NCBI GenBank assembly: GCA_963813065.1
Contig: CAWEXP010000009.1
Span: 1,931 to 65,930 of the forward strand
From: Candidatus Kaiserbacteria bacterium
GTDB lineage: Bacteria; Patescibacteriota; Minisyncoccia; Phycocordibacterales; Phycocordibacteraceae
Direction of reading: 5' to 3'
Length of the DNA stretch: 64,000 nucleotides
In this document: piece by piece, positions 584 to 45,358 of the stretch
Numbering within the stretch: position 1 is the first letter of the stretch
How the letters are laid out: each line of letters begins with the position of its first letter
Made by a program: the position numbers and the translations under genes
Notes under the pieces: model-generated
What the model was told of the DNA's origin: nothing
The model's input: the letters and a program-made list of their open reading frames with translations, nothing else
The model's database searches: none

Positions 584-932
584 ATGATCCCAATTCCGAG
601 CGGCGTTAGGGTATGGATTGCGACTGGTCATACCGACATGCGGCGCGGCATGCAGGGTCTGGCGCTTCAGGTTCAGGAGAGTTCTAAACCGCGATCCCCA
701 TGCCGGCGATCTTTATATCTTCCGAGGTCGTCGCGGCGATCTCGCCAAGATCCTCTGGCACGACGGGATCGGGCTGTCGCTATACGCCAAACGACTGGAC
801 CGCGGAAAGTTCATCTGGCCGTCGGCATCAGGCGCCGCGGTGTCGATCTCGGCGGCGCAGATGGCGTACATGCTCGAAGGGATCGATTGGCGAAATCCGC
901 AACTGACGTGGCGGCCCAAGAGCGCGGGTTGA
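584..932 (+). pseudogene. tnpB: IS66 family TnpB (orfB), frameshifted
   Basis: The N-terminal part MIPIPSGVRVWIATGHTDMRRGMQGLALQVQE reads in the 584 frame. The remainder (...LYIFRGRRGDLAKILWHDGIGLSLYAKRLDRGKF...) reads in the 618 frame. A 1-nt frame change lies near 680-700. Confidence 0.55.
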
Positions 933-1002
933 TGAGCGCGGGCCGAACCGCAAAAATATTGGAGACAGTGCGCATTTTAGGACGCGCCAAATCGCGCGAT
1001 TT

Positions 1003-2473
1003 GTGATTCACTTCGACGCATGGATGCCGCTCGCGCCGTTCTTGCCGCAAGAAAACGCCGCCCTGAAAGCGGCGTTGACCGTTGCGCAGAACAAGGGCCT
1101 AAAGTCGGCGGAGCTGGCGGTCGCGCGCGCGAAGGCGTCAGAAGACATGGCGCTGATCGCGCAGCAGGAGCTTCGGATTGCGAAACTGGAGCGCCAGGTC
1201 TATGGGCAGCGCTCGGAACGCTCGGCGCGCCTGATCGATCAACTGGCGCTCAGCTTCGAAGATCTGGAAGCCAGCGCCACGGAAGACGAGCTGGCGGCAG
1301 AAAAGGCCGTCGCCAGCACGACCACGGTGGCCGGATTTACGCGCAAGCGTCCCGAGCGCAATACATTCCCCGACCATCTTCCCCGCGAGCGCGTGGTGAT
1401 CGATCCGCCGACGGCGTGTGCGTGCTGTGGCGGCAATCGTCTGCGCAAACTTGGCGAGGACGTGACGTGCACGCTGGAATCCATCCCCCGTCAGTGGAAG
1501 GTGGTCGAGACGGTTCGGGAGAAGTTCACCTGTCGGGATTGCGAGAAGATCTCGCAAGCACCGGCACCGTTCCATGTCATCGCGCGGGGCTGGGCGGGGG
1601 CAAGCCTGCTGGCGATGATTGTGTTCGAGAAATTTGGTCAGCACCAGCCTTTGAACCGTCAGGCCGAGCGTTATGCGCTGGAAGGCGTGCCAATCGCGCT
1701 GTCGACCATGGCCGACGCGGTGGGCTCGGTCTGTACGGCGCTCGATCCGCTCCTTCGCCTTGTGGAAACTCATGTGATGGCGGCCGAGCGCCTACATGGT
1801 GACGATACGACCGTGCCGGTTTTGGCTGAGGGCAAGACCGATACTGGGCGATGCTGGATCTATGTTCGAGACGACCAGCCCTTTGGCGGCGTCGGGCCGC
1901 CTGCGGCGATGTTCTACTACTCACGCGATCGCCGGGGCGAGCATCCGCAGGCGCATCTGGCCGGATATGCCGGCATCCTGCAGGCGGACGCCTATGACGG
2001 CTACAACAAGCTCTATCTGGCGGACCGCCGGCCCGGCCCGATCCGGGAGGCGGCGTGTTGGGTGCATGCGCGGCGACCATTCTTCGCCATGGCGGATCTT
2101 GAGGAGAACGCTCGCCGCAAAGCCGCAGGCAAGAAGGAAATCCCTCTATCGCCGATCGCGATCGAGGTCGTGCGCCGCATCGACGCGCTGTTCGAGATCG
2201 AGCGGTCCATCAACGGCAAGAGCGCCGAGGAGCGTATAGCGGTCCGACAAAACTTGAGCCGGCCGCTGGTTGATGATCTTCGGGTCTATATGCGTGAGCA
2301 GGCCGCCGGGCTCTCGCGCGGGCATGACCTGGTCAAGGCCATCAATTACATGCTCAAGCGTTGGCCGGCCTTCACCTTGTTCCTTGAAGATGGCCGCGTT
2401 TGTCTCTCAAACAACGCCGCCGAGCGAGGTCTGCGCGGCATCGCACTTGGGAAGAAAATCATGGCTGTTCTAA
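1003..2473 (+). pseudogene. tnpC: IS66 family transposase TnpC, 3' end disrupted
   Basis: Coiled-coil N-terminus, a CxxC...C zinc motif and a DDE core are typical of IS66 transposase. The conserved tail GRKSWLF-stop is found only in the +1 frame at 2452-2473. The in-frame continuation to 2760 is not transposase-like. Confidence 0.6.
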
Positions 2474-2740
2474 GTCTTCGTCAACGGGATTGTAGTCGTC
2501 TGGTCGAAGGAGTTTTACGACACCTTCACCGACAGCGATGCCCTTGGCGGGCCGATACACCTCGGTGCCTTCGCCGACAAGCTGCACGTACACCACTCGG
2601 ATCTTTTGCTGCGAAGTCTGTCATCGCGCGCTCCAACGGCAGGTCAAAGCATATCCCAGTCGCACTTCAGATTCACGATCACGCCGTCTCTCCATCGCAC
2701 GAATGCGACGCTGTCTTGCCAGCCACGTCATGCGGCGGGC

Positions 2741-2800
2741 AGGCCCGATCCCAAACCTAACCCCGATCCCAAACCCAAACCTAACCCACTCCTACCCGCG
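2741..2800 (+). repeat. short tandem repeat (CCCGATCCCAAACC(C/T)AA units; encodes PNPDPKPKPNP)
   Basis: Direct visual repeat at ccgatcccaaacctaaccccgatcccaaacccaaacctaaccc. Confidence 0.4.
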
Positions 2801-3445
2801 ATTGCCAATCACCGCCCACAGCCAAATCCACGGCAACAGCACGACGACGCGCCACTCGCGCGTGATCGCGTACATCGCACGGAAATCAGAAACACATAGC
2901 TTAGAAGAACAAGATGCGCGCTCTTGTCGACCATGATCTTCGCGCCGCCCCAGACCGCGAAGCCGACCGAGGCGAGTCCGAGAGACAATTGCAAGATTCG
3001 CCACGGGCGCGCGAGATACAGAGAGAGCATCGCCGTCGGCAAGAGCACCAACAAGAAGCCAATCACTCCGAGCACCAAGCGCTCCAACCCGATGAAGCCG
3101 GTGGCGCTTTGTTTGCAAGACCGGGAGTCGACGAATGGGCGGCTTCTTTTTTTGGCTCACAGGTTATTCGTTACGGGCAGGCGTATCGGCGGGGGATTCG
3201 AACGTGGGGGCAATGTTGAAACCGTTTGGGGATCGAGCGCTCCAAGCAGCGAGTGCGCGAGAGCCGATGTCACGCGAACAGGTACAATTTGGCCGAGATC
3301 AACGCGCGATAATCGCGCTCCAAAGGGGACATCAATATGCACGATCTCGTTTCGCTCGCTGCGGCCCATCACGCGGCTTGGGGTTCGCGATAGACGCACG
3401 CCGCCTGGGCGTGATTCGCCTTCGATCAACACATGCGCGCTACTG

Positions 3446-3724
3446 TCAACGAGCGACTGCAGATGCGCCCTCTGTTGTTTGTCGGAATGCTTCAAAAGGC
3501 TGTGCGAGCCGCGATTCTTTGATTTGTTCGGGCACGTTATCGGGCAGGTTCTGGGCGGGGGTTTGCGGGCGAACCGAGTACTTGAACCCAAAGAGCGCGC
3601 TGAATCCCGCTTCGGCGACCAACGAGAGTGTCTGCGCGAAGTCGTCGTCGGTCTCTCCCGAAAAGCCGACGATCACGTCGGTCGAAATCGTGATGTCAGG
3701 GCACGCCGTCTTGAGCGCGCGCAC
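3446..3724 (-). pseudogene. internal fragment of MiaB/RimO-like radical-SAM methylthiotransferase
   Basis: The 92-aa stretch ...TDVIVGFSGETDDDFAQTLSLVAEAGFSALFGFKYSVRPQTPA... matches the C-terminal half of MiaB-family enzymes. There is no N-terminal radical-SAM region. Confidence 0.5.
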
Positions 3725-3754
3725 TCCGTTTAAAATTGTTCGCGCGTGTAGCGA

Positions 3755-4150
3755 CGGATCATGCGACGTAAAATGGCGTTCGAACCCGATTGCACCGGCA
3801 GCTCAGAAATCGCCTTCAAGATCGCGGCATCAATGGCTTTCCAGGCGGCGGCCGAGCGCGCGAAGCCCGTTATCCTCGAGCCGATTATGAAGGTCGAGGT
3901 CGTCGCGCCGGACCAGTTCATGGGCGACATCACCGGCAACATCTCGGGCAAGCGCGGCGCCATCGAGAGCATCGAAGAGCGGGGCATGAACAAGGCGATT
4001 CACGCCAAGGTGCCACTCTCTGAAATGTTCGGCTACACCACCACGCTCCGTTCGATGACCGAGGGCCGCGGCTCGATGACGATGGAATTCGACCACTACG
4101 AGACTGTGCCAAACAATGTGGCGGCGGACATCATTGCTTCGCGCAAATAA
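3755..4150 (+). pseudogene. fusA: 3'-terminal fragment of elongation factor G (fusA), last ~130 aa only
   Basis: ...SSEIAFKIAASMAFQAAAERAKPVILEPIMKVEVVAPDQFMGDITGNISGKRG...VPLSEMFGYTTTLRSMTEGRGS... is the EF-G domain IV/V C-terminus. A stop lies immediately upstream at 3749. The miaB fragment abuts on the opposite strand. Confidence 0.65.
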
Positions 4151-4235
4151 CTCATAAAAAATCGAACGCACGCGCGCTTGCCGGGGGCAAGCGCGCGTGC
4201 TAGTTTCCAGAGCGGAACATCAGTGGAGAAGGTCA

Positions 4236-4720
4236 ATGAATAAAGCCGAGCCGATTGCCGCTCTTGCGAAAAAGTTCTTACAAGACAAAAGAGGAGAACC
4301 CTGTTTGCCGATGAAGGTAGTCGGGGATTCAGATTCGAAATGCCCCTTGCAGGAAAGCGTCGCGATTGTTGGTTCAACTACGATGGCTTCCAGCTTGTCC
4401 AGTTCAGCGCCGTTATCGGATCGGCACTGGTGAATCAAGCCGACTTCAACTTTAGAGAAGCTCTCGCCACTGCGGGCGAACGAGATCCTTTCTTCGGAAC
4501 ATTGGTGCTCATCAATGGCAATTTAACCCACGTCTTGAGCTACAAGTTTTCGCATCGCCATGAACATATCGACGAAGTGCTCAAAGCACTCCTCGATCAA
4601 GGAGCGTTCGAAGATCTCTATCGCCTCGACCTCATTCATCAACTATCGTTCAGGGGCGATGAACCATCGTACATTGTCCAGATGGATTTCCGTTTTGGAT
4701 ATCCTCAAGGGCATGCATGA
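4236..4720 (+). CDS. hypothetical protein, probable frameshift near 4380
   Basis: A GGAGAAGG Shine-Dalgarno precedes the ATG at 4236. The frame 4236-4433 and the frame 4340-4720 look like one gene split by a 1-nt indel. GC is lower than in neighbours. A terminator follows. Confidence 0.3.
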
Positions 4721-4884: not shown

Positions 4885-6084
<1,200 letters not shown>

Positions 6085-6177: not shown

Positions 6178-6573
6178 ATGACAGCGGCACTTACAGAAAA
6201 ACCGAAGGCGAAGCGCGTGGCGAAACCACGCGTGGCTAAGGTTGCTACTGCCGCCGCTCTCCCCGAGGAGCACAAGCTCCGCATCCGCGTTCGCGCCTAC
6301 GAACACAAGATTCTCGACGTCTCGGTCAAGCAGATTATGGATACCGCCGCTCGCTTCGACGCGAAAGTCGTTGGCCCGGTGCCACTCCCGACCGAGATCA
6401 AGCGCTGGACCGTCAATCGCTCCACTTTCGTCCACAAGGACGCGCGCGAGCAGTTCGAGATGCGCATCCACAAGCGCCTTATCGATATTTTGAATCCCTC
6501 GCCGAAAGTTATCGAGGCACTCACTAATTTGAATCTTCCTTCCGGCGTCACGATTGATGTGAAGATGGTTTAA
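6178..6573 (+). CDS. rpsJ: 30S ribosomal protein S10 with ~29-aa basic N-terminal extension
   Basis: ...LRIRVRAYEHKILDVSVKQIMDTAARFDAKVVGPVPLPTEIKRWTVNRSTFVHKDAREQFEMRIHKRLIDI... Confidence 0.9.
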   Translation: MTAALTEKPKAKRVAKPRVAKVATAAALPEEHKLRIRVRAYEHKILDVSVKQIMDTAARFDAKVVGPVPLPTEIKRWTVNRSTFVHKDAREQFEMRIHKRLIDILNPSPKVIEALTNLNLPSGVTIDVKMV

Positions 6574-6593
6574 CCTGAGCGCAGTCGAAGGTT

Positions 6594-6622
6594 CGACAAA
6601 CCGCCCGCAAGGGCGGCTTTGC
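6594..6622 (+). terminator. intrinsic terminator directly after rpsJ
   Basis: aaaccgcccgcaagggcggctttgctattt. Confidence 0.55.
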
Positions 6623-6669
6623 TATTTCCGAAATAGAGCGTACTGTCTCGGCAGGGAAGAGAGGCACAT

Positions 6670-6921
6670 ATGTTCAAACAGCTACAGGCACTATGCCAGT
6701 ACATGGTACGTCGGTGGCGCGAAATGCGTCTCAGACAGCTCGAGAAACGCTTCCAACAGCTGGAGTGGGATTATAACCACTGGAGCTGGATGCGAGACGG
6801 ATCCGGCGCACTCATTGATTGTTGCGACGAGCGTCGAGAGGTTTACAGAAGGCGTGTTCGACTCAGCGACCTTCTCGGTCTGCCGGCACCCCAGCCGATC
6901 GATAATCCATGGGCATTTTAA
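6670..6921 (+). CDS. hypothetical small protein (Trp/Arg-rich), lower GC
   Basis: 83-aa ORF between rpsJ and rplC, followed by the hairpin aaccgggccctcgtggcccggtttt. Confidence 0.3.
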   Translation: MFKQLQALCQYMVRRWREMRLRQLEKRFQQLEWDYNHWSWMRDGSGALIDCCDERREVYRRRVRLSDLLGLPAPQPIDNPWAF

Positions 6922-6976
6922 ACAACCGGGCCCTCGTGGCCCGGTTTTCCATGCTCCCATGATATAATCACCCGCA

Positions 6977-7291
6977 ATGAAGAAGGTGAAACACGCGAAA
7001 AAATACGAGCCAACACTCACCGACGTGCTCGAGGCGGTGCAGGTTGGCTTTGGGAAACATGATGAACGATTTGATTCGATGGATAGACGATTCGATACTA
7101 TAGAACAACGGCTCGATAATCACGACAGATTGCTCAAGTCTCTCCACGGGGGCCAGGAAAATCTGAAAGAGCAGGTGCAGGATATCAACCATCGCCTAAT
7201 CAAGACCCAAAACCGCGTCGAAGATATTGCCGACATTCTCGAGGTTGACCACGAGCGCCGCATCACGCGGCTCGAGAAGGCCCGCGCTTGA
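6977..7291 (+). CDS. hypothetical coiled-coil protein (paralog of 12049..12426)
   Basis: 104 aa MKKV...EPTLTDVLEAV...FD.MDRRFDTIEQRLDNHDR...HERRITRLEK. It shares N-terminal and heptad-like motifs with the ORF at 12049. GC is ~49%. Confidence 0.5.
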   Translation: MKKVKHAKKYEPTLTDVLEAVQVGFGKHDERFDSMDRRFDTIEQRLDNHDRLLKSLHGGQENLKEQVQDINHRLIKTQNRVEDIADILEVDHERRITRLEKARA

Positions 7292-7439
7292 TTTCTGCTC
7301 CGTTTGCATCTTTTAAGGCCATCGTGTAGAGTGCCCTCATCGCTACGAACCCCATGAGACAGCGAAGCTGGCTTTTACGGGGGTCCTATGGCAGAGGGTT
7401 TTTCTAACCCCGCGCCATTTGGCGCGATTTGCTTAAAAA

Positions 7440-8054
7440 ATGAAATTCATCTTGGCTCGGAAGGCGAACATGACCCGTATCTACGGGGAGGATGGTCGTG
7501 CGCTCGCAGGCACCATCCTCGTCGCCGCGCCGCTGACCGTGACGCAGGTCAAGTCGGTCGAGGGCAAGGACGGCTATGCCGCGCTCCAGGTTGGCGAGGG
7601 GACTCGTAAGACCAAGAACATCGGCAAGGCGGTCTTGGGCCACACCAAGGGCAGAGGCTATGCGGCGATTCGCGAGTTCCGCTCTGATGCCTCCGCAGAG
7701 GTTGGGAGCGAGATCAGGGTCGACGCCTTTGCGGTCGGCGATGTGGTCGAGATTTCCGGCTTGTCCAAGGGCAAGGGCTTCGCGGGCGTGGTCAAGCGCC
7801 ACGGCTTCCACGGCGGTCCGCGTAGCCACGGCCAGAAGCACTCCGAGCGCGAGCCAGGTTCGATTGGTGGCTCGAGCGGTCGCGCCGGTGGTCGCGTCGC
7901 GAAGGGTATGCGCATGGCCGGCCGCCTTGGTTCTGATCGCGTCACCGTCAAAAATCTGAAAGTGCTTGCGGTCGATGCAAGCACGAACGAGATCGTCATC
8001 TCCGGCGCGGTGCCGGGCAAGCGCGGCACGCTCCTCGAGATTGTCTCAAAATAA
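7440..8054 (+). CDS. rplC: 50S ribosomal protein L3
   Basis: 204 aa, typical L3 (…GKGFAGVVKRHGF.GGP.SHG…). Confidence 0.9.
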   Translation: MKFILARKANMTRIYGEDGRALAGTILVAAPLTVTQVKSVEGKDGYAALQVGEGTRKTKNIGKAVLGHTKGRGYAAIREFRSDASAEVGSEIRVDAFAVGDVVEISGLSKGKGFAGVVKRHGFHGGPRSHGQKHSEREPGSIGGSSGRAGGRVAKGMRMAGRLGSDRVTVKNLKVLAVDASTNEIVISGAVPGKRGTLLEIVSK

Positions 8055-8064
8055 TTTTCATACT

Positions 8065-8829
8065 ATGGCCAATGCAAAGAAAAAATTGAATAAGAAGCTC
8101 CGCAGTCACGGGAAGCCGAAGTCCGTCGTGACGCCAGGCAAGGAAAAGGCCGCCGTTGCGGGCCCGATTGAACTCGCCGTCTACTCGATGGCAGGGAAGA
8201 AGATTTCGACCATGACTCTTCCCGAGAACCTTTTCGGTGCCAAGTGGCGCCCGGATCTCGTGCACCAAGTGACGACCGCGATGCAGGCCAACTTGCGCCA
8301 GAACCGCGCTCACACCAAGGATCGCGCCGAGGTGTCTGGCGGCGGCAAGAAGCCCTGGAAGCAGAAGGGTACCGGCCAGGCACGTCATGGTTCCTCGCGT
8401 AGCCCAATCTGGCGCCACGGCGGTGTCACTTTCGGTCCGCGCTCGGAGCGTGACTACAGCGAGAAGATTAATAAGAAGATGCGCAACCAGGCGCTCATCT
8501 CGGTACTCTCGCAGAAAGCGAAAGATGGTGAGTTGATTCTTATCGACTCCTTCTCCTTCGAGGCACCGAAGACGGCCCTCGCCATCAAGGCGCTTGGTGC
8601 CATCGCGAAGGCGACCTCGCCCTCCTTGGCGACCAAGCGCGTCAACGCGGCCCTCATCGCCCTCGCCTCGCACTCGGCGAACACCATCAAGTCGTTCCAG
8701 AATATCGGGAGCGTCGCGACCGAGGAGGCACGCAACTTGAATCCGGTCGAGATTCTTTCGCACCGCTATCTCATCATCGAGAACCCGGAAGTCTCGTTCG
8801 CGACACTCTCCGCTCGCCTTAAGAAATAA
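8065..8829 (+). CDS. rplD: 50S ribosomal protein L4 with lysine-rich N-terminal extension
   Basis: MANAKKKLNKK...GGGKKPWKQKGTGQARHGS...; ATG at 8065. Confidence 0.9.
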   Translation: MANAKKKLNKKLRSHGKPKSVVTPGKEKAAVAGPIELAVYSMAGKKISTMTLPENLFGAKWRPDLVHQVTTAMQANLRQNRAHTKDRAEVSGGGKKPWKQKGTGQARHGSSRSPIWRHGGVTFGPRSERDYSEKINKKMRNQALISVLSQKAKDGELILIDSFSFEAPKTALAIKALGAIAKATSPSLATKRVNAALIALASHSANTIKSFQNIGSVATEEARNLNPVEILSHRYLIIENPEVSFATLSARLKK

Positions 8830-8831
8830 GT

Positions 8832-9203
8832 ATGGCTATTTTCTCAACCAAAAAAGAGAGCAAGAAAAAGGAAGCGGCCAAGAAGCCGATTAAGAACGCG
8901 CTCGCGAACAAGCACGCGGCCGGTATCGCGCACGAGGTGATCCAGGCGCCGTGGTTCTCGGAGAAGGCGATTCTCGGCACCGAGAAGGGCGTCTACGTCT
9001 TCGCGATTCCGCGCACGGCGACCAAGGCTGATGTCGCGGGCGCCATCAAGGAGCTCTATAAGGTCTCGCCGCGCAAGATTAACATCGTGAACCTCCCCGG
9101 CGCCCGCGTTTCTCAGCGCCGCCGCGCGGGCCACGCGACGCGCGCACGCCGCCGCAAGGCCTATGTCTACCTGAACTCGGGCGACACCATCAATCTCGCC
9201 TAA
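8832..9203 (+). CDS. rplW: 50S ribosomal protein L23
   Basis: 123 aa, uL23 fold with a basic C-terminal tail. Confidence 0.85.
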   Translation: MAIFSTKKESKKKEAAKKPIKNALANKHAAGIAHEVIQAPWFSEKAILGTEKGVYVFAIPRTATKADVAGAIKELYKVSPRKINIVNLPGARVSQRRRAGHATRARRRKAYVYLNSGDTINLA

Positions 9204-9212
9204 TATTTACTT

Positions 9213-10064
9213 ATGAAATCTTATCGCCCCACCACCAAGAGTCGCCGTAGCATGACCACGCTTCCGTACCGAGAGCTCCTCTCGGGCGATGCGCCGCACA
9301 AGCCTCTCATGAAAGTGCAGAAGCGCGAGGGCGGACGCAACAACTTCGGTCGCATCACGACGCGTCACCAGGGCGGCGGGCACAAGCGCCGCTTCCGCGA
9401 CGTTGATTTCTCGTACGATAAGAAAAATATTCCGGCCAAGATCGAGACGATCGAATACGATCCGTTCCGTTCCGCCTTCATCGCACTGGCGCTCTACGCC
9501 GATGGCTCGCGCCGTTATCACCTCGTGCCCAAGGGGATGCAGGTGGGTGATCGCTTCACGGTTGGCGAGGACGCGCCGATTATTTCGGGCAATCGCGTTC
9601 CGCTCGGCAAGATCCCGGTCGGTACGTTCATCTACAACATCGAGCTCCGCCCCGGCGCGGGCGCCATCCTCGTCCGTTCGGCCGGCAATTTCGCTGAAGT
9701 GGTCGCGCACGATGCGGGCTACGCGCAGGTCAAGCTCCCCTCGACCGAGATTCGCCGCGTCAGCGACCTCTGCTGGGCTTCGATTGGTGCGGTTGGCAAT
9801 GAGGAATACAATCTCGTCGTCATCGGCAAGGCTGGTCGCTCGCGTTGGCTCGGCATCCGCCCGACGGTGCGCGGTACCGCGATGAACCCTGTCGACCATC
9901 CGCACGGCGGCGGCGAAGGACGCCAGGGTCGCGGCCTCAAGCGCGCCAAGAGCATGTGGGGCAAGCCGACGGGCAAGGGGCAGAAGACCCGCACACCGAA
10001 GAAGTACAGCAACGTCTTCATCGTCTCGCGCCGCAAGGTTGGGAAACGAAACAAGAAAGCGTAA
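9213..10064 (+). CDS. rplB: 50S ribosomal protein L2
   Basis: 283 aa, ...GRNNFGRITTRHQGGGHKRRFR...MNPVDHPHGGGEGR... Confidence 0.95.
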   Translation: MKSYRPTTKSRRSMTTLPYRELLSGDAPHKPLMKVQKREGGRNNFGRITTRHQGGGHKRRFRDVDFSYDKKNIPAKIETIEYDPFRSAFIALALYADGSRRYHLVPKGMQVGDRFTVGEDAPIISGNRVPLGKIPVGTFIYNIELRPGAGAILVRSAGNFAEVVAHDAGYAQVKLPSTEIRRVSDLCWASIGAVGNEEYNLVVIGKAGRSRWLGIRPTVRGTAMNPVDHPHGGGEGRQGRGLKRAKSMWGKPTGKGQKTRTPKKYSNVFIVSRRKVGKRNKKA

Positions 10065-10069
10065 TTTCA

Positions 10070-10110
10070 CAAGAAAACCCCCGCGCGCCGTCTCGGCGCG
10101 CGGGGGTTTT
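10070..10110 (+). terminator. intrinsic terminator after rplB (interrupts the S10 operon)
   Basis: aaaacccccgcgcgccgtctcggcgcgcgggggtttt. Confidence 0.7.
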
Positions 10111-10171
10111 CGTTGCAGTTCTTGCATTCTTGCGTTAGGCTCTCGCAAGATGAAGCCATAAGGAGGCCGCA

Positions 10172-10729
10172 ATGAGTGACCATAAAGAGCCTGTAAACCC
10201 AAACTTGGTGCAGGTAGAATTCATTCTTGTTGACATACCTGCCAAGACAGGAATCGAGTCCGATATCCAAACGCTTGCACTCGAGCTGGCCGGCAGGTTG
10301 CCGAAGCTCGTGGTGCGGTTCTTCGATGAGCGGGGACTGGTGACGAAGCTGGTGCAAGACTATGAAGCTACGCAGTCAGCCTACGGAGTGACCATAATCG
10401 AACTGGGGAAGATGAGTTTTGGTGGTCGATTTGCAGTCTCTGAGCAACGCGATGTCGCTCGTCTTTCGCGGAAAATGGACGCACTACGAGGCCAAGCGCG
10501 CTCACTCACAGTCGGCATGTTGAGTAGTGTCACGAAAGGGTCTCGCAGAATCGCCATCGAAGATTCGCCCGATCGACCTTTGCGCATGGCAGTCGAGGCC
10601 GAGTTCGACCACCTGGTCACCACGGCCAAGAAGGCAAAAGATGTGTTCATTTTCGTCTTCAAACCGAACGATCTTCTTTCCGAGAAGAACGAAGCTGTTG
10701 TCAGTATGGTATTTAAGCTCCAGCTGTAG
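10172..10729 (+). CDS. hypothetical protein (island gene, lower GC)
   Basis: An AGGAGG Shine-Dalgarno lies 6 nt upstream. 185 aa. The gene ends in TAG followed by the hairpin CCCCGCTCTGGCGGGGATTTTATTT. Confidence 0.5.
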   Translation: MSDHKEPVNPNLVQVEFILVDIPAKTGIESDIQTLALELAGRLPKLVVRFFDERGLVTKLVQDYEATQSAYGVTIIELGKMSFGGRFAVSEQRDVARLSRKMDALRGQARSLTVGMLSSVTKGSRRIAIEDSPDRPLRMAVEAEFDHLVTTAKKAKDVFIFVFKPNDLLSEKNEAVVSMVFKLQL

Positions 10730-10815
10730 CCCTCTCCCCGCTCTGGCGGGGATTTTATTTGCCTGTAACATGTCCTTGTGGTATAAGATGGCCAGAGCAA
10801 CCGAAGGAGAAACCA

Positions 10816-11199
10816 GTGATTATTCTTGAAAAGATGTCTCGCAAAATCTCGTTCTCTGCGGGCAATCATTTCCGTCGCGCCAATTTTATCGAAGAAATTG
10901 GCGATAGCTCAATGGTGGTGTGCGTTTGGTCGCAGTGTTCATTATGGGATACAGGCGTCTTCCGTGTCAGGCATGTGCCTGTCGTCGACACGGGCGTTGA
11001 AGTGTTCCAGCGTGGTCAGCCGATTCTCGACATCACCCAACAAATCAAGGGATATGCTCCCGCGAGCCTCATCACACCTCTTGAGCACCTCACTACCAAT
11101 GTTTCCTTGTGGAAACTGAAAGTGAGTCTTGAATCATCGGTCCTCGATGCGGTTGGCAAGGTATCGTTCCCAGACTTTCTTAACATCGAGTTCGAATAA
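10816..11199 (+). CDS. hypothetical protein (island gene)
   Basis: A GTG start with a perfect AAGGAG Shine-Dalgarno 7 nt upstream. The ORF track's upstream TTG at 10759 is the less likely start. Terminator CCCCGCGCAATGCGGGGATTTTTATT follows. Confidence 0.4.
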   Translation: MIILEKMSRKISFSAGNHFRRANFIEEIGDSSMVVCVWSQCSLWDTGVFRVRHVPVVDTGVEVFQRGQPILDITQQIKGYAPASLITPLEHLTTNVSLWKLKVSLESSVLDAVGKVSFPDFLNIEFE

Positions 11200-11228
11200 C
11201 GTGCCTGCCCCGCGCAATGCGGGGATTT

Positions 11229-11996
11229 TTATTGTTGATACTGCGGTTGAAGAATGGTGCGAATCTGCGAGACCGGGATGCGGAGCGTCTGCGGGCCCGA
11301 GGAGTACGGCGCGACCTGGTAGGGAGCGAAGAGGATAATGAAATCCTTGTTGTCGAAGAAGAAATTCTGGAAATTAGCGGCTTCGGGCGTCGTGCCGGGG
11401 TTGATGAAGGTCGGGTCAGCGCTATCGCCGATGATGGCGGGGAGCATCTGCCGCGCGAGGGTCGAGAGTGTGCCCAGATAATCGGAACCGCTCAAGAAAA
11501 TATCGCTCAAGGCGAGTGCTTGTCCGGTCGAGGTGTCGAAGGTGAGGGTCGAGAAGCTCGTGTTGGGGTGCGCGCCGAGCGTATCTTCGTAGGTGGTGAA
11601 GATGTAGGAAACCGTGCGGGGCGAAGAAGCGATGAGGTAGGTAATCTGGAGCGATTCTTTGCTTCCTTTATCGAATCCCATCATCGAAATGTCGCGCAGT
11701 GAGAGATGGTCGAAGTTGCCCTGCGTCTTGAAGTCGCTAATAATCCCGCTGACGAGCGATTGGATCTTCGCAATGGCGGCGCGGTCGGCCGCGGCACCCG
11801 CAGTTTCAGCGAGCGGGGTCGAGGTCGGATAGTTGGCGGCAATGTCGTAGTACGGCGCGTGCTCGGTGTCGCCGCCCTCTGGAAGCGTGAGAACGACGGG
11901 CGCCGAGACTGGCGTCGGCTTCACTGCCGCGTAGAACACAATCCCCACCACAATCACGACCAGCACCGCGCCACCGATAATCAGTTCTTTTTTCAT
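11229..11996 (-). CDS. membrane-anchored DUF3298/DUF4163-like (RsiV/PdaC-type) protein
   Basis: An N-terminal TM helix, then ...YYDIAANYP...ITYLIASSPRTVSYIFTTYEDTLGAHPNTSFSTLTFD... Confidence 0.5.
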   Translation of the reverse strand: MKKELIIGGAVLVVIVVGIVFYAAVKPTPVSAPVVLTLPEGGDTEHAPYYDIAANYPTSTPLAETAGAAADRAAIAKIQSLVSGIISDFKTQGNFDHLSLRDISMMGFDKGSKESLQITYLIASSPRTVSYIFTTYEDTLGAHPNTSFSTLTFDTSTGQALALSDIFLSGSDYLGTLSTLARQMLPAIIGDSADPTFINPGTTPEAANFQNFFFDNKDFIILFAPYQVAPYSSGPQTLRIPVSQIRTILQPQYQQ

Positions 11997-12048
11997 GTGA
12001 ACAGTCTAGCAAATCGGGCGAATATGGGCGCGTGATAGAATAACGAGC

Positions 12049-12426
12049 ATGAAGAAGGTCACAAAATCGATCGCGATTAAGGAGCCCACCCTTACGGAGG
12101 TTCTCGCTGTTATGAATGAGCGTTTCGACGTGGCTGAATCTCGTATGGAAAATAGATTTGGTGACATTGAAATCCGCATCGACAAACGTTTCAATTCTTT
12201 GAATGAGCGCTCGAACGGAATCGACGCGCGACTTGGTGTTATTGAAAGGCGGGCTGGTAAAATTGAGAACACTCTCGGCGATATACAAGATGATTTGACT
12301 TCCGCACTTGCCGCCACCGATAACGATGGTTCTGCGATTTTGAATCACGAACACCGCATCGCGCACCTAGAGAAATTGAGCAATATTAAAATCGTTCCAC
12401 CCCGGCATCTCGTCGGTCTTGAATAG
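12049..12426 (+). CDS. hypothetical coiled-coil protein (paralog of 6977..7291)
   Basis: MKKV...KEPTLTEVLAVMNERFD...RFGDIEIRIDKRFNSL...HEHRIAHLEK. A bidirectional terminator with a GATTAC loop follows. Confidence 0.5.
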   Translation: MKKVTKSIAIKEPTLTEVLAVMNERFDVAESRMENRFGDIEIRIDKRFNSLNERSNGIDARLGVIERRAGKIENTLGDIQDDLTSALAATDNDGSAILNHEHRIAHLEKLSNIKIVPPRHLVGLE

Positions 12427-12458
12427 AAAAACCCCGCCGATTACGGCGGGGTATCGTC

Positions 12459-12776
12459 TTACTCTTCGTTTGGGTTATAACTGAGTAAACGACCTCTTCT
12501 GGTTTGCGTGTTGTAAGTGCCTTTCAGGTATAAGTATTCACGATTTTTATACCGCTCAAGGGACGGTGCATTGACCAGATGGCCGTTACATACGATTTCC
12601 CACGGCTCGCCCTCACCAGAGCCTCGCTTAACTATGTCGATGGTTAGACTGTAGACATATTCTCCATCTCCGCCGTGGAAATGGAATTTCTGGGGAACGC
12701 CCTGAGCGAGTCCTGGAATTAACAACCCCCATTGCGAAGGACCGTTCACAACGAGATAATTCACTCCATGGGCCAT
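12459..12776 (-). CDS. hypothetical protein
   Basis: 105-aa ORF convergent with the 12049 ORF. Confidence 0.35.
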   Translation of the reverse strand: MAHGVNYLVVNGPSQWGLLIPGLAQGVPQKFHFHGGDGEYVYSLTIDIVKRGSGEGEPWEIVCNGHLVNAPSLERYKNREYLYLKGTYNTQTRRGRLLSYNPNEE

Positions 12777-12860
12777 CCGACCCTCCTTTGATACATGATC
12801 TCCTCATCGGTGCGGAAATCGAACACCCTGACTCCTCGCGGAGCGACCTACCCATACAGA

Positions 12861-13923
12861 CGCGCATTCTCATATGAATCCGAACACTCGCGGTATTGTG
12901 CGTGCATGAAAAAAGAAACGTTGGAAGCAGCTGAGCACGAGCGAGCGGTCTGAGATTTCAATACTGAAGCGCAAGAAGTATTCGCTCCGTGCGATTGCTC
13001 GAGCTCTTGGCCGCAGTGTTTCCAGCATCTCGGAAGAGTTGAAGAGGAATCGAGTGCGAGGTTTGTATGATGTACAGAAGGCTGCACACAAGGCGTATGC
13101 ACGAAGAAAGTACGCGAAGTATCAAGGCATGAAGATCGTCGGGCATGCGGGTCTGCGTTCACTCGTGGAAGAGCTGTTGTATGACGACCAATCGCCCGAG
13201 AACATCGCCGGAAGAGTCCGGAAGTATGCCAAGCGTCTGCCGACCATCTCGAAAGACGGCGTGTACCGATTCATCAAAAGCGTGTATGGCCGGAGAATTG
13301 AGTCGCATCGGAACGCGCGAAAGCAGAAACGAAGAAAGTATCACCCGAGAGTCGCGGCTCTTTCAGAGCGAACCTTCATCGACAAACGGCCCAGGCATAT
13401 CAACGCTCGTTCGAGGAGCGGAGATGTCGAGGCTGACTTCATTGTCTCGGGCAAGACTGGCAGAGGCATCCTGCTCGTGGTGGTCGACCGGAAGCTCCGC
13501 GTCACGTTCATCGAACGCATTCTCGATGTGTCAGTGGCGAACGTGCACCGGGCATTCCTCCGCATTCAACAGAGATTCCCCGAGCTCCGCACCATCACCA
13601 CTGACAACGATATTTTGTTCCAGATCATCAGGCACTCGCCACTCTTCTGGGGGTGCGCATCTATTTCTGTCGGCCGTATCACTCCTGGGAGAAAGGAACG
13701 GTTGAGAATACAAACGGCGTCATACGCAAAGACATACCGAAAGGCGCAAACATTTCTCGCTATTCAAAGGCATTTATACAAAAGCTCGAGGACAAGCTGA
13801 ACCGGAGGATACTGAAATGCCTCCAATACAAAACTCCGGCGGAAGCATTAGCTGCGGTACGGAAACGAAAAAAGCGCCGAGGCGCATGAAATTCGAGTGT
13901 TCGGATTGAGCCCGTCGAGCGGG
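12861..13923 (+). mobile_element. IS30-family insertion sequence, copy 1 (1063 bp; 3-bp TSD AGA)
   Basis: Ends CGCGCATTCTCATATGAATCCGAACACTCG ... CGAGTGTTCGGATTGAGCCCGTCGAGCGGG share the inverted core AATCCGAACACTCG. The flanks are acAGA|IS|AGAta. The copy is identical to 40332-41395 except for a 1-bp deletion. Confidence 0.85.
12906..13889 (+). pseudogene. IS30 family transposase, copy 1 (extra 1-bp deletion at ~13618 splits the DDE domain)
   Basis: The HTH region ...KKKRWKQLSTSERSEISILKRKKYSLRAIARALGRSVSSISEELKRN... lies in the +1 frame relative to the ATG at 12906. The DDE region ...TTDNDILF follows. This copy reads ttccagatc where copy 2 reads ttccgagatc. Confidence 0.8.
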
Positions 13924-14016
13924 AGATAGGAATTGATTTCAATATACACCCTTATGCAAATCTGTCAAAGTTTTAAAATGGGCTAGGGATTCTCGGGCAA
14001 TTTGGATTTGCCCGAG

Positions 14017-14045
14017 TTGACGGCTGGGAGAGACTCGTGTATCTT
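14017..14045 (+). promoter_or_regulatory. candidate promoter (TTGACG-17-TATCTT) re-initiating transcription of rpsS and downstream genes after the IS30/island insertion
   Basis: -35/-10-like hexamers with 17-nt spacing, 36 nt upstream of rpsS. Confidence 0.35.
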
Positions 14046-14049
14046 GCCT

Positions 14050-14078
14050 CTATCCCGTTCGGCGGGATATTTATTTCA
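14050..14078 (+). promoter_or_regulatory. terminator-like hairpin in the rpsS leader (possible attenuator)
   Basis: CCCGTTCGGCGGGATATTTATTT lies between the candidate promoter and the rpsS ATG. It is the same motif family as the hairpins at 10733 and 11204. Confidence 0.35.
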
Positions 14079-14080
14079 CT

Positions 14081-14485
14081 ATGGCACGATCACTCAAGAA
14101 GGGACCCTACGTGGACGTCAAACTCCTCAAAAAGGTCCAAAAAGCTCAGTCCCGCACCGCGGGGGTGATTAAGACGTGGGCGCGCGGAAGCCGAATCAGC
14201 CCGGAAATGGTTGGTTTCACCTTCGGCGTCCACAACGGCAAGAGCCACATTGAGGTCCTCGTCTCTGAGGAGATGGTGGGGCATCGGCTCGGTGAATTCT
14301 CGCCGACCAAGAAGTTCATCCGCCACGGTGGCAAGATGCAGAAGGAGCTCGAACAGAAGCGCCAGGAGTCGGAGGTCGCCGCCGCCAAGGCCGCCTCTGC
14401 CGCTCCGCCGCTAAGAAATAATTTGTATGAAAGCGACTCTCGAAAGCCACAATCAGTCCCCGCGCAAGGTCCGCCTCGTGGCTGA
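14081..14485 (+). CDS. rpsS: 30S ribosomal protein S19; 3' boundary uncertain (reads 59 nt into rplV)
   Basis: [19 protein letters not shown]...[45 protein letters not shown]... The ORF runs ~40 aa past the usual S19 end to a TGA at 14483. Confidence 0.7.
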
Positions 14486-14744
14486 CCTCGTGAAAGGGAA
14501 GAAGGTCCCGGCGGCGCTCTCGGCGCTCGCGTTCCTCCCCAAGCGCGCGAGCGAGCCAGTCGCCAAGCTCATCAAGAGCGCGGCCGCTAATGCCAAGGAC
14601 AAGGGCGAGAACCCGAAGAGCTCACGATAGGTCAATCACCCGTCGAGAGCGCGGAAATGTCGAAGCGTTTCATGCCGCCACGCCTTCGGCCGCGCCTCGG
14701 CGATTCGCCACAAGAAGAGCCGCATTAAGGTCGTCCTCGCGTAA
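14427..14744 (+). pseudogene. rplV: 50S ribosomal protein L22 with an in-frame TAG at 14628-14630
   Basis: [27 protein letters not shown]...[55 protein letters not shown]. Homology to L22 continues in the same frame across the stop. Confidence 0.7.
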
Positions 14745-17541: not shown

Positions 17542-17760
17542 TCTCGTTTTACAAAAATTGAAATGGCCCGTGCGAGCGCGGGTCATTTCGTTTGCATTGT
17601 AGTACACGACGTTCTCACGGAGGCGCGCTATGCACAGGCATCCACTAAATACTGCTATAGCAGAAAATAAAGGATAGTGCGTAAAAGGATGGGAAGTTGC
17701 GTTTCTGCCAAGTTCGGGGTATGGTCGCGGCAGACGAAACGCTTACGAGAGGTGAATTCG

Positions 17761-17922
17761 ATGAGCATCTTTTCTATTTTAGGAATTGCGGCCTTGGTAA
17801 TAGGTCTACTCACACATCAAACTCCAAGTACTCGTGCCATCATTCTTTCCGCGTGTCTCGTCTTCTTCGGTATTGGATTCTTCTGGCCATCATTCTTGAT
17901 GGTGCCACCATACTGGAATTAA
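17761..17922 (+). CDS. small hydrophobic protein (2 TM) inserted between rplE and rpsN
   Basis: A GAGGTG Shine-Dalgarno precedes MSIFSILGIAALVIGLLTHQTPSTRAIILSACLVFFGIGFFWPSFLMVPPYWN. It is flanked by hairpins at 17563-17590 and 17931-17957. Confidence 0.3.
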   Translation: MSIFSILGIAALVIGLLTHQTPSTRAIILSACLVFFGIGFFWPSFLMVPPYWN

Positions 17923-31412: not shown

Positions 31413-32186
31413 ATGGACGCGCATCCATATATCGGCCTTACCGGCTCCACGACCGACGACCACGTCTTCGCGGCGCTCGACGCCTTTCCGCCGAATCACC
31501 CGACACACTTGCTCATGCTCGGCTTCTTGCTGAGCAACAAGTCGGTGCGGGGCATACCGCTCAACCATCCTTGGGATAAGCGCACGCCCAAGCTCGACGA
31601 GCTCGGCGATTTACTCCGCCATGACACGCGTGTCATCAACATGGTGCACTATGCCCGCGGGAACGCGAGCGACGAAGAAGCATTCGCTGATTTGAAGTTG
31701 ATTATGCAGGAATGCGGACTCTGTCTCGACGGATTCCAGCTCAATGGGCCTCTTCCGAGCCCGTCACTGCTCCGTCGTTGTCGCGATTCATTTCCGCGTG
31801 CACCGCGCTTCGTCTTGCAGATCAATCGTAAGACACTCGACGACGCGGGCGGCACCATCGAAGCGGTGCTGGAAGAGCTCGAAGTGTACGAAGGCCTCGC
31901 GCACTATGTCCTCTTCGATATGAGCGGTGGGTTGGGGAGACTGCTCGACGTTGATCAGACGCTCAAGTTCCTTTCAGCATATCGCCAGAGTGGCCTCACC
32001 ATGCGTCCGGTCGTCGCCGGCGGCATCGGGCCTAAAACGCTTGATCTCCTTGTGCCGATTATCGCCGCATTCCCCGGCGTCTCGACCGACATGGAAGGTG
32101 CGTGCATGGGTAAGAACGGCGCGCTCTCGACGCGCAGGACCCGCACGGCCGTTGGTGACCTGAGCACGCTCTTCGCAAAAAAATAA
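31413..32186 (+). CDS. TIM-barrel protein, distant phosphoribosylanthranilate isomerase (TrpF)-like
   Basis: The C-terminal ...PVVAGGIGPKTLDLLVPIIAAFPGVSTDMEGAC... resembles the TrpF C-terminus. Weak call. Confidence 0.3.
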   Translation: MDAHPYIGLTGSTTDDHVFAALDAFPPNHPTHLLMLGFLLSNKSVRGIPLNHPWDKRTPKLDELGDLLRHDTRVINMVHYARGNASDEEAFADLKLIMQECGLCLDGFQLNGPLPSPSLLRRCRDSFPRAPRFVLQINRKTLDDAGGTIEAVLEELEVYEGLAHYVLFDMSGGLGRLLDVDQTLKFLSAYRQSGLTMRPVVAGGIGPKTLDLLVPIIAAFPGVSTDMEGACMGKNGALSTRRTRTAVGDLSTLFAKK

Positions 32187-40331: not shown

Positions 40332-41395
40332 CCCGCTCGACGGGCTCAATCCGAACACTCGAATTTCATGCGCCTCGGCGCTTTTTTCGTTTCCGTACCG
40401 CAGCTAATGCTTCCGCCGGAGTTTTGTATTGGAGGCATTTCAGTATCCTCCGGTTCAGCTTGTCCTCGAGCTTTTGTATAAATGCCTTTGAATAGCGAGA
40501 AATGTTTGCGCCTTTCGGTATGTCTTTGCGTATGACGCCGTTTGTATTCTCAACCGTTCCTTTCTCCCAGGAGTGATACGGCCGACAGAAATAGATGCGC
40601 ACCCCCAGAAGAGTGGCGAGTGCCTGATGATCTCGGAACAAAATATCGTTGTCAGTGGTGATGGTGCGGAGCTCGGGGAATCTCTGTTGAATGCGGAGGA
40701 ATGCCCGGTGCACGTTCGCCACTGACACATCGAGAATGCGTTCGATGAACGTGACGCGGAGCTTCCGGTCGACCACCACGAGCAGGATGCCTCTGCCAGT
40801 CTTGCCCGAGACAATGAAGTCAGCCTCGACATCTCCGCTCCTCGAACGAGCGTTGATATGCCTGGGCCGTTTGTCGATGAAGGTTCGCTCTGAAAGAGCC
40901 GCGACTCTCGGGTGATACTTTCTTCGTTTCTGCTTTCGCGCGTTCCGATGCGACTCAATTCTCCGGCCATACACGCTTTTGATGAATCGGTACACGCCGT
41001 CTTTCGAGATGGTCGGCAGACGCTTGGCATACTTCCGGACTCTTCCGGCGATGTTCTCGGGCGATTGGTCGTCATACAACAGCTCTTCCACGAGTGAACG
41101 CAGACCCGCATGCCCGACGATCTTCATGCCTTGATACTTCGCGTACTTTCTTCGTGCATACGCCTTGTGTGCAGCCTTCTGTACATCATACAAACCTCGC
41201 ACTCGATTCCTCTTCAACTCTTCCGAGATGCTGGAAACACTGCGGCCAAGAGCTCGAGCAATCGCACGGAGCGAATACTTCTTGCGCTTCAGTATTGAAA
41301 TCTCAGACCGCTCGCTCGTGCTCAGCTGCTTCCAACGTTTCTTTTTTCATGCACGCACAATACCGCGAGTGTTCGGATTCATATGAGAATGCGCG
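40332..41395 (-). mobile_element. IS30-family insertion sequence, copy 2 (1064 bp; 3-bp TSD GTA), inserted in msrA
   Basis: Identical to copy 1 apart from one base. The flanks ...gagGTA|IS|GTAtcgc reconstruct the msrA codons G-T-E-Y-R-S. Confidence 0.9.
40366..41349 (-). CDS. IS30 family transposase, copy 2 (HTH in +1 frame after an A6 tract; 283-aa DDE ORF intact)
   Basis: The ORF 40366-41217 is intact, including ...TTDNDILFRDHQALATLLGVRIYFCRPYHSWEKGTVENTNGVIRKD... The N-terminal HTH lies upstream in the +1 frame relative to the ATG at 41349. Confidence 0.8.
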
Positions 41396-41679
41396 TACTC
41401 GGTACCCGTGTCGGGGCCCTGGCGATTGACCTGCGTCGCATCATGCGACCCGAAGAAGACCGTGAGCAGATTGGTATAGCTAATCTGGTTGGGGTCGAAC
41501 TCAACTTTGATGACCTCGGCGTGGCCCGTGCGGCCGCTCGCGACCCGTTCGTACGTCGGCGCTTCACTCGTACCGCCCGCGTATCCCGGCTCAACGCTCT
41601 CGATACCTCGCAACATTTTAAAAACAGCTTCTGTGCACCAGAAGCACCCACTCCCGAAAACGGCTGTTTCTGTGTTCAT
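41396..41679 (-). pseudogene. msrA: msrA 5' half (fused to the IS30 terminus)
   Basis: MNTETAVFGSGCFWCTEAVF...GHAEVIKVEFDP...NRQGPDTGTEY, then IS-derived AHSHMNPNTRGIVRA-stop. Confidence 0.8.
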
Positions 41680-42856: not shown

Positions 42857-43228
42857 TTATTTCTTCTCTTCTTTTTCGAAGTCGAGACAGACCGAATTGA
42901 TGCAGTAACGTTTGCCGCCCTTCTCGCGCGGACCGTCATCGAAGACATGGCCCAGGTGCCCACCACAATTCTTGCAGTAGACTTCGGTGCGCATGCCGTC
43001 GTGGTCGAGGCGCGTGCCGACGTGCGCGGCGACCGCCGGGTCAGTGAATGAAGGCCAGCCCGTGCCAGAATCGAATTTTGCTGAAGAATCGAAAAGTACC
43101 GTACCGCATTGCTTACAGCGATACACGCCCGCCTCATGATTGTCGAGGTATGCGCCCGAGAAGGGCGCCTCCGTCCCGCCCTCGACCAGCACTGCGCGCT
43201 CTTCTGGGGTGAGTTCTTTCATGTCCAA
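42857..43228 (-). CDS. msrB: peptide-methionine (R)-S-oxide reductase MsrB
   Basis: CxxC...CxxC zinc site and the RYCINS active site. Confidence 0.85.
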   Translation of the reverse strand: MDMKELTPEERAVLVEGGTEAPFSGAYLDNHEAGVYRCKQCGTVLFDSSAKFDSGTGWPSFTDPAVAAHVGTRLDHDGMRTEVYCKNCGGHLGHVFDDGPREKGGKRYCINSVCLDFEKEEKK

Positions 43229-44887: not shown

Positions 44888-45358
44888 ATGACTATTCCAT
44901 CCGTTGGTACCGCCGCTCCTGCGTTTACGCTCCCTGACCAGGATGGCAAAGAGCACACGCTTGCCGATTATCGGGGAAAATGGGTTTTGCTCTATTTCTA
45001 CCCCAAGGACGATACTCCTGGTTGCACCATAGAAGCCTGCACCATCCGTGATCAGTTCAAAGATTTCAAAACGATTGGCGCGGTCGTGCTCGGCGTCTCG
45101 ACTGACTCGGTCGCGAGCCACAAGAAGTTCGCGAGCGCCTACGAGCTCCCCTTCACTCTCCTCGCAGACGTACACAAAGAAGTCGTGGGGAAGTACGGCG
45201 TCTTCGGCGAGAAGAAGTTTATGGGCCGCACCTACATGGGCACCGCACGCACGTCATTTCTGATTGATCCCAAAGGCACCGTCGCAAAAGTGTACGAGCA
45301 CGTGAAGCCGGAGAAACACGCCGCCGAGGTCATTGCGGATTTGAAAGCATTGTCATGA
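44888..45358 (+). CDS. bcp: thiol peroxidase / peroxiredoxin Bcp
   Basis: ...VLLYFYPKDDTPGCTIEAC... Confidence 0.8.
   Translation: MTIPSVGTAAPAFTLPDQDGKEHTLADYRGKWVLLYFYPKDDTPGCTIEACTIRDQFKDFKTIGAVVLGVSTDSVASHKKFASAYELPFTLLADVHKEVVGKYGVFGEKKFMGRTYMGTARTSFLIDPKGTVAKVYEHVKPEKHAAEVIADLKALS

Follow-up and report, generated by a model that had tools for sequence, protein, structure and literature searches.

Two paralogous coiled-coil minigenes in the breaks of a Kaiserbacteria S10 ribosomal protein gene cluster, and the recurrence of their family in related genomes

The 64,000-nucleotide stretch of DNA analysed here, called the window below, comes from a Candidatus Kaiserbacteria bacterium (assembly GCA_963813065.1, contig CAWEXP010000009.1, positions 1,931 to 65,930) and carries an S10 ribosomal protein gene cluster with two small genes for coiled-coil proteins inside it. 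Homologues of its L2 protein are named Candidatus Kaiserbacteria and Paceibacterota, which places the uncultured host among the candidate phyla radiation bacteria of that group. CC_A (A; 6977-7291, plus strand, 104 aa) lies between rpsJ and rplC, and CC_B (B; 12049-12426, plus strand, 125 aa) lies between rplB and rpsS. They are paralogous to each other and, compared with the nearest relative, inserted. Both belong to a protein family without a name, members of which occupy these two gaps in other genomes as well. We favour, with moderate confidence, the reading that they represent a family of moron-like accessory minigenes in recombination-prone islets between conserved transcription units. 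The family is a recurrent accessory tenant of such gaps, not a proven mobile element or a part of the ribosome.

A first-pass annotation had reported both open reading frames (ORFs) at these coordinates and in these two gaps and had proposed that they are related, and our results agree with it on each point. BLASTP aligns A and B at 34% identity over 119 columns (E=5e-9), an identity above 25% and accompanied by shared motifs. Their Smith-Waterman score of 100 compares with 30.7+/-5.7 for 2000 shuffles (z=12) and lies above all heptad-block shuffles, the highest of which reached 86. A family hidden Markov model (HMM) built without A and B recovers both of them, A with E=1.6e-22 and B with E=1.6e-38 (Z=1e6). 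The N-terminus MKKV..EPTLT[DE]VL and the C-terminal HE.RI..LEK, noticed as common to the pair, are real and are shared by the whole family. A belongs to subfamily III (KTQNRVEDIAD type) and B to subfamily I (DIQDDLTSAL...NHEHRI.HLEKL..IK.VP.KHL type), and the two are true but ancient paralogues. Both genes are indeed low in GC: the GC content and the GC content at third codon positions (GC3) are 0.51 and 0.62 for A and 0.47 and 0.50 for B, against a GC3 of 0.70-0.85 in the ribosomal protein genes. The window holds exactly two copies of the family, as weak tblastn matches at 31458, 37135 and 63554 were not confirmed by HMM. An independent Logan contig confirms the sequence of A, and the European Nucleotide Archive contig P0001 confirms most of that of B.

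The closest relative found, L041, is 89% identical in ribosomal protein L2, and a blastn alignment of it against the window shows that both genes are insertions, as had been proposed. At the first site, the 3' end of rpsJ in L041 aligns up to window position 6572, and what comes right after the rpsJ stop codon there matches window 7304-7353. Therefore, 6574-7303 (plus strand, ~730 nt) is extra in the window; it comprises the rpsJ terminator, a small companion gene (ORF83), a hairpin, the predicted CC_A promoter, and CC_A itself. At the second site, L041 6860-7593 corresponds to window 11275-12008 and L041 7640-8165 to window 13960-14500. L041 has just 47 nt between the start of its DUF3298 gene and the block upstream of rpsS, where the window has 12009-13959. 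Thus B, a further small gene on the minus strand (ORF105), and an IS30 copy are extra in the window, together ~1.95 kb.

These insertion points coincide with a subdivision of the cluster. Terminators are present after rpsJ and after rplB. The first conserved block after the first insertion, TTGCAT-N17-TAGAGT (7304-7332, plus strand), begins 12 nt after the CC_A stop codon, is conserved in L041 and L042, and is a putative promoter of rplC-rplB. At the right edge of the other gap, a promoter-like site for rpsS (TTGACG-17-TATCTT) and a leader hairpin with a T-run occupy 14017-14069 (plus strand), and the block upstream of rpsS is present in each of the 10 relatives for which sequence upstream of rpsS was read. 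From the terminators and the conserved rplC and rpsS promoters it follows that the S10 'operon' consists here of at least three predicted transcription units. The breaks between these predicted units, rpsJ‖rplC and rplB‖rpsS, are exactly where the two insertions lie. We also considered whether the minigenes donate a promoter to the operon downstream. This is not necessary, as rplC and rpsS keep their own conserved promoters.

The block upstream of rpsS, ~110 nt long, deserves a description of its own. It reads TGTCAAGGTTCTGGAA..., contains the promoter-like TTGAC-N17-TATCTT and, after this, a G+C hairpin whose T-run is only ~10-15 nt away from the start codon. It is also found in L003, L011, L021, L022, L029, L030, L043, L044 and L045. 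It could be an attenuator or an autoregulatory leader; Rfam has no match for this block, or elsewhere in the region.

The proposal that the same operon is hit repeatedly extends beyond this genome, as a neighbourhood check found the family in the same two gaps elsewhere. It occupies the rplB|rpsS gap in ~11 distinct genomes (L002/L005, L003/L004/L016, L011, L017, L021, L022/L023, L028, L029/L030, L031, L038), the rpsJ|rplC gap in 2 (L009/L010), the scpA|scpB gap in 2 (L008 and L012/L013), with ~9 members in other contexts, although the contexts were gathered via the family itself, so that these frequencies are not independent samples, and the sampling is not phylogenetically independent either. 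Among these other contexts, members follow groEL (L020), an RNR gene (L033/L034) or a gene for a tetratricopeptide repeat (TPR) protein (L026/L027/L032); L024 has one between genes for a histidine kinase and an ABC transporter, and L025 has one beside a PLD-domain gene near infC-rpmI-rplT. In all these contexts, the family gene shares its strand with the flanking genes.

The rplB|rpsS site has been filled more than once. A neighbour-joining tree resolves three subfamilies, each with members in this gap, and the L2 tree of the hosts largely tracks subfamily. The hosts of L002 (subfamily I) and L003 (subfamily III) are 92% identical in L2 and carry different subfamilies, which implies at least one replacement; this difference and the presence of three subfamilies in one gap lead to the conclusion of repeated filling. 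In addition, when relatives were chosen by rplB/L2 alone (84-89% identity, only five controls), none of the five had a family gene within 5 kb of rplB. Their gaps contained ~180 nt of empty sequence in two (L044, L045), a DUF3298 gene and a 92-aa gene in two, and a 70-aa gene in one. The absence from all five of these relatives indicates a sporadic tenant of the gap instead of a fixed operon member. In one host clade (L003, L011, L022, L028), the gene has persisted over dS>1.

The family genes share a promoter-like element placed directly in front of the coding sequence. Of 25 family genes taken from different genomes, 24 carry an extended -10 box, TGnTAnnAT, whose end lies 6-8 nt before the ATG. 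In the window, this box is TGATATAAT for A (6960-6968, plus strand), 8 nt before the CC_A ATG, and TGATAGAAT for B (12033-12041, plus strand), 7 nt before the CC_B ATG. The same 25 genes have no Shine-Dalgarno sequence, and their upstream regions share neither a -35 box nor any other conserved feature beyond -22. The position of the box and the absence of a Shine-Dalgarno sequence thus predict a leaderless mRNA made from a promoter independent of a -35 element, and the expression unit of predicted promoter and leaderless ORF would measure about 350-420 bp. The box is not confined to the family. Its strict pattern occurs six times in the window, and five of these occurrences start ORFs of at least 60 codons, namely A, B, msrA, msrB, and a gene for a Bcp-type peroxiredoxin (bcp). 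Since other monocistronic genes of the genome share the box, the architecture is not unique to the family.

The first-pass annotation described each gene as flanked by terminators, which is only half correct. Upstream of A, the hairpin CCGGGCC/GGCCCGG followed by TTTT (6926-6948, plus strand) reads as a terminator-like end of ORF83 just before the CC_A promoter, and no hairpin was found downstream before the rplC promoter. For B it is the downstream side that has a G+C-rich hairpin (12431-12452), located between the convergent CC_B and ORF105 and with its T-run on the minus strand, and the upstream side has none.

The family is sizeable and its members are under selection. Searching a word-indexed collection with a profile of A and B yielded 63 proteins, and an exhaustive HMM search of 1.84 billion cluster representatives gave 164 matches at E<=1e-10, most of them 85-135 aa long and covering the full profile; a few giant repeat proteins among the 164 are coiled-coil noise. 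The family comprises at least ~160 clusters, uncurated, and in this sampling comes mostly from Paceibacterota/Kaiserbacteria-type metagenome-assembled genomes. Its members have a Lys-rich start, an EPTLxDV motif at the start of the helix, R.D..E.R.D-type heptads that vary in number, and a common D.Q/ADxL...A.DKDA segment, in which A has a 13-residue deletion. The C-terminal H-E-x-R-I-x-x-L-E is nearly invariant, an invariance that is in part a consequence of how the set was filtered. The dN/dS between homologue pairs is 0.03-0.2; therefore, these are real proteins under purifying selection.

AlphaFold2 models A as a single unbroken helix (residues 14-103; predicted local distance difference test score, pLDDT, 90.9) after a basic 13-aa tail. 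B is modelled as a helix from 15 to 89, a break at TDNDG, a second helix from 95 to 111, and then a tail. The helix is acidic, with a median isoelectric point (pI) of 5.4 over the family and a net charge of about -6. The product most likely forms a parallel homo-oligomeric coiled-coil rod with a conserved His/Glu/Arg end.

The gaps hold more than this family. Their cargo includes HigB/HigA, PaaX-like genes, a sugar transferase gene, a 922-aa orphan gene, membrane minigenes, and IS30. A DUF3298 gene (RsiV/Rv3036c-like, opposite strand) occurs in the rplB|rpsS gap of L017, L019, L028, L031, L038, L041 and L042, which makes it a second recurrent tenant; the coiled-coil gene may or may not accompany it. 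We considered it as a functional partner of the family and rejected it, because L041 and L042 carry it in the gap with no family gene beside it, and many family genes lack such a neighbour. A third recurrent tenant is a PaaX_M-domain gene with a weak Cas2 match, found in several relatives in the rpsJ|rplC gap and also downstream of rplE (L002 4108-4716, L003 3125-3625, L043 1863-2354 and 10107-10688, and L029/L030).

Some of this cargo is bordered by repeats. In L003, the last 60 nt of rplB and the terminator are duplicated (97 nt, 92% identical; 6863-6955 and 7896-7992) with one copy on each side of a HigBA pair, the coding part being identical and the rest diverged. This duplication is the scar expected from single-crossover integration of DNA with rplB homology. 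A perfect 28-nt direct repeat (2897-2924, 4205-4232) flanks the PaaX-like gene in the rpsJ|rplC gap of the same contig, and both L003 repeats look like integration scars. The scpA|scpB gap of L012 contains duplicates of the scpA 3' end and of the region upstream of scpB, and the two orphan genes flanking there, of 240 and 219 aa, have a 56-nt stretch in common, which suggests tandem duplication of the gap content; the repeats of this gap are at 5095-5120/5924-5949, 5858-5890/7023-7055 and 5183-5238/6394-6449.

Taken as a moron-like accessory family, the minigenes would work as follows. The minimal unit would be an extended -10 promoter that needs no -35 element, with a leaderless ORF directly after it. 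The breaks rpsJ‖rplC and rplB‖rpsS would be flexible islets in which HigBA, PaaX-like genes, DUF3298 genes, IS30, orphan ORFs, and the family come and go, probably exchanged by recombination that uses the highly conserved genes on either side as anchors. Two properties would explain why the family recurs: its unit is expressed at any landing site, and an insertion that falls between a terminator and the promoter after it does no harm. The S10 cluster would be its most frequent address. The protein itself would then have an accessory role outside the ribosome.

Two known types of system resemble this arrangement. Morons of lambdoid phages are independent promoter-gene-terminator units found between genes that are adjacent in related genomes. 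Like them, the family unit is a single small gene of deviant base composition with its own predicted promoter directly upstream, in the form of the conserved box; it separates two conserved genes which in relatives are direct or near neighbours, and is present or absent among close relatives. Unlike morons, the family genes reside in a ribosomal protein cluster of a bacterial chromosome and have no viral relatives in IMG/VR, one family recurs at the same site in many genomes, and a hairpin follows B only (with its T-run on the minus strand), not A. Integration hotspots or flexible islets, on the other hand, are flanked by core genes and exchanged by homologous recombination in the flanks. The S10 gaps share their variable content between highly conserved flanks and their toxin-antitoxin modules and insertion sequence (IS) elements, and the duplicated rplB 3' end flanking cargo in L003 fits Campbell-type integration. 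They differ from such islets in lying inside the most conserved gene cluster of bacteria and in the over-representation of one small family.

Several observations weigh against reading the minigenes as moron-like tenants. The scars described above bound neighbouring cargo; none lies at a family gene and none in the window, and repeat searches around A and B and in 16 gaps found no repeats or duplicated flank ends at the family genes, inverted repeats being confined to IS30. In the L003/L011/L022/L028 clade the gene looks, from sequence divergence, stably inherited, which would suit a useful resident as well. Two gaps of a single cluster account for about half of the contexts, a share above what would obviously be predicted for a neutral hotspot, and this concentration could reflect a site preference or a functional link to the cluster. 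Finally, the use of the promoter and the leaderless starts are predictions from sequence.

Among the alternatives, the one we rank highest, though still as unlikely, is that the family is a new kind of self-sufficient 'leaderless minigene' with a preference for breaks in essential clusters (S10, scpAB) of the candidate phyla radiation (CPR), either spreading selfishly via its flanks or encoding a rod that acts on the machinery encoded next to it, the ribosome or condensin. Below it we place an actively mobile or selfish cassette, suggested by the first-pass annotation, in which a trans-acting recombinase or a homing-like process targets the breaks in essential clusters. Such a cassette would explain the presence and absence among close relatives, the three subfamilies at one site and one subfamily at several sites, the orientation that is always that of the flanking housekeeping genes, the composition unlike that of the flanks, and the own promoter, a trait of free-standing homing genes and phage morons. 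However, the product is a bare helix with no nuclease or recombinase domain, and Pfam and NCBIfam gave no match to GIY-YIG, HNH, LAGLIDADG or similar nucleases. No recombinase was found around the family genes, their edges have no inverted or direct repeats and no conservation upstream of the promoter box, no relatives occur in IMG/VR viral contigs, and no near-identical copies were found at different sites, the pair in the window being only 34% identical. The strong purifying selection and the persistence of the gene in one clade are further arguments against this suggestion. Free-standing homing endonuclease genes, for example seg and mob of T4-like phages, are a known system close to such a cassette. 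Like them, the family genes are small, autonomous and patchily distributed, lie between conserved essential genes, and include diverged paralogues, whereas the predicted single helix of their product contains no nuclease domain or catalytic fold.

The other suggestion of the first-pass annotation, a ribosome-associated accessory factor, is in our estimate less probable again. In this case a lineage-specific factor, for example for hibernation or assembly, would be kept in the S10 cluster for co-regulation. It would account for ~13 of ~25 distinct contexts lying inside the cluster, for the Lys-rich N-terminal tail, for CC_A ending just before the rplC promoter without a terminator of its own, and for the long-term retention under purifying selection in the rplB|rpsS gap of one clade. 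Against it stand the five clusters of L2-chosen relatives, all without the gene, the members placed between scpA and scpB, after groEL, after an RNR gene, or between histidine kinase and ABC transporter genes, the acidic helix, and the presence of an own promoter in place of co-transcription. The match of A to the ribosome-associated protein YibL (NF008244) is noise, at 16.4 bits (E=0.0099) with a cut-off of 110 bits. Least probable of all, in our view, is a defence, stress or phage-derived gene, that is, a small effector or immunity factor or a moron from phages of CPR bacteria. The company kept by the family could be read in this way: HigBA and PaaX-like genes (PaaX_M, weak Cas2 match) share the gaps, L002 and L003 have HEPN/MNT-type pairs adjoining the cluster, and the L025 member has a PLD-domain gene beside it. 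Weak PHROG matches to small, functionally uncharacterised phage proteins and the strict promoter pattern common to msrA, msrB and bcp in the window point in the same direction. Nevertheless, PADLOC gave no match beyond coiled-coil noise, the PHROG matches fit coiled-coil bias, the viral contigs of IMG/VR contain no relatives, and no conserved partner gene of the kind found in type II toxin-antitoxin arrangements was seen, the neighbours differing in every context.

No gene array in bacteria is more conserved than the S10/spc cluster, which serves widely as a phylogenetic marker block for CPR genomes. In the Kaiserbacteria-type cluster studied here, the array is split into units, and the breaks behave as flexible islets with toxin-antitoxin modules, IS elements, and one unnamed protein family that is recurrent and strongly conserved. 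This matters for the annotation and binning of these genomes and for how very small genomes accommodate accessory genes, and it draws attention to an unnamed family with ~160 sequence clusters or more. Should the family prove to seek out such sites or to work on the ribosome, the interest would be broader; the evidence presented here shows neither.

Searches of protein databases returned mainly the signature of a coiled coil. In Pfam, NCBIfam and PADLOC, no model reached its cut-off for A, B or the family, and PHROGs likewise gave sub-threshold coiled-coil matches. The commonest sub-threshold match was Pfam DUF7310 (PF23991, cut-off 40 bits), with 17 bits for A, 19.1 bits for B, and E<=0.01 in 14 of 37 members (best E 1.7e-6). 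XhlA haemolysin (PF10779, cut-off 34.7 bits) matched A at 16.6 bits and nine of the 37 members weakly; we rejected it, as the models show a soluble helix without a hydrophobic tail and no membrane segment was found. SlyX (PF04102) matched two of the 37 below the profile cut-off (best E 0.0043), and a JGI record that names one member 'SlyX' is thus not backed by the profile result. Like DUF7310, XhlA, SlyX, and HSBP1-like small coiled coils, the family has a similar size and repeats of the heptad and 'R.D..E.R.D' type. In contrast to them, it carries the EPTLxDV and HExRIxxLE motifs, which are absent from those models, its scores stay under their cut-offs, and it lacks the transmembrane segment of XhlA.

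The matches in PADLOC-DB were of coiled-coil type only, with E>=3.7e-4, to segments of large proteins (DruC, LmuB, JetC, ZorA). Weak PHROGs matches were to phrog_5553, 5328, 5225 and 12015 (E 1e-5 to 1e-7), which is within the range expected from coiled-coil bias. Sequence searches of the PDB with three profiles and one single protein found generic dimeric and trimeric coiled coils, among them viral fusion HR1 regions, reovirus sigma-1, tropomyosin, and designed bundles. One weak profile match (E=9e-4, profile positions 11-81) is PDB 7o97, the 93-aa 'hypothetical protein UY81_C0065G0003' of Candidatus Giovannonibacteria. Cluster look-ups for names of distant members returned none, and we found no literature on the family or on insertions in CPR S10 clusters. 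Four contigs with 65-68% GC and a non-CPR appearance (L036, L037, L039, L040) carry distant family-like ORFs with a PTLTDI start and a DHERRITRLE end, and by sequence the family may extend beyond Paceibacterota.

The remaining features of the window frame the two genes. Upstream of A lie tuf (4885-6084), rpsJ (6178-6573), and ORF83 (6670-6921, plus strand). ORF83 is a companion of A in this genome only; it is also called as a gene in the independent Logan contig L001, and has no homologue at any other locus compared and no match in the family libraries. After A come rplC, rplD, rplW and rplB (7440-10064; rplC 7440-8054, rplB 9213-10064). The rplB-rpsS gap of the window spans 4 kb and has, besides B, four occupants. 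ORF185 (10172-10729, plus strand) is a further tenant, to which a 159-aa gene at the equivalent position in L041 looks related by eye. The membrane-anchored DUF3298 gene follows (11229-11996, minus strand; PF11738, 50.7 bits). ORF105 (12459-12776, minus strand) is unique to this genome and has no match in the family libraries. The IS30-family element (12877-13907, plus strand), with perfect 14-nt terminal inverted repeats, lies ~110 nt upstream of the rpsS promoter-like site, and its transposase gene is split by a frameshift (13039-13800 and 13653-13889; NF033563, 88 and 68 bits). The rpsS start is at ~14165, and the other cluster genes come after it.

Just beyond, between 14427 and 15860, rpsC extends over three reading frames and rplP over two, and the rplV ORF ends early. 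Because essential genes cannot be broken in this way, these breaks are probably indel errors, as in long-read assembly, and not pseudogenes; together with the frameshift in the IS30 transposase, they make local indel errors possible. Near the start of the window (584-4150), IS66-type genes (TnpB-like 584-1006, transposase 1003-2760) precede what is only the C-terminal end of fusA (3761-4150), so that either fusA is disrupted or the start of the contig is chimeric.

Other observations concern the same genome. The box described above lies 5-8 nt before the ATG of msrA (41347-41679, minus strand), msrB (42857-43222, minus strand) and bcp (44888-45358, plus strand), and leaderless expression appears, judging by this placement, to be used for oxidative-stress genes in this genome. 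Orphan ORFs also occur in other gaps of the cluster. A 126-aa ORF (4340-4720) lies in the fusA-tuf gap, where L041, L042 and L045 have different ORFs, and an 81-aa membrane ORF (17677-17922) lies within the 540-nt gap between rplE and rpsN.

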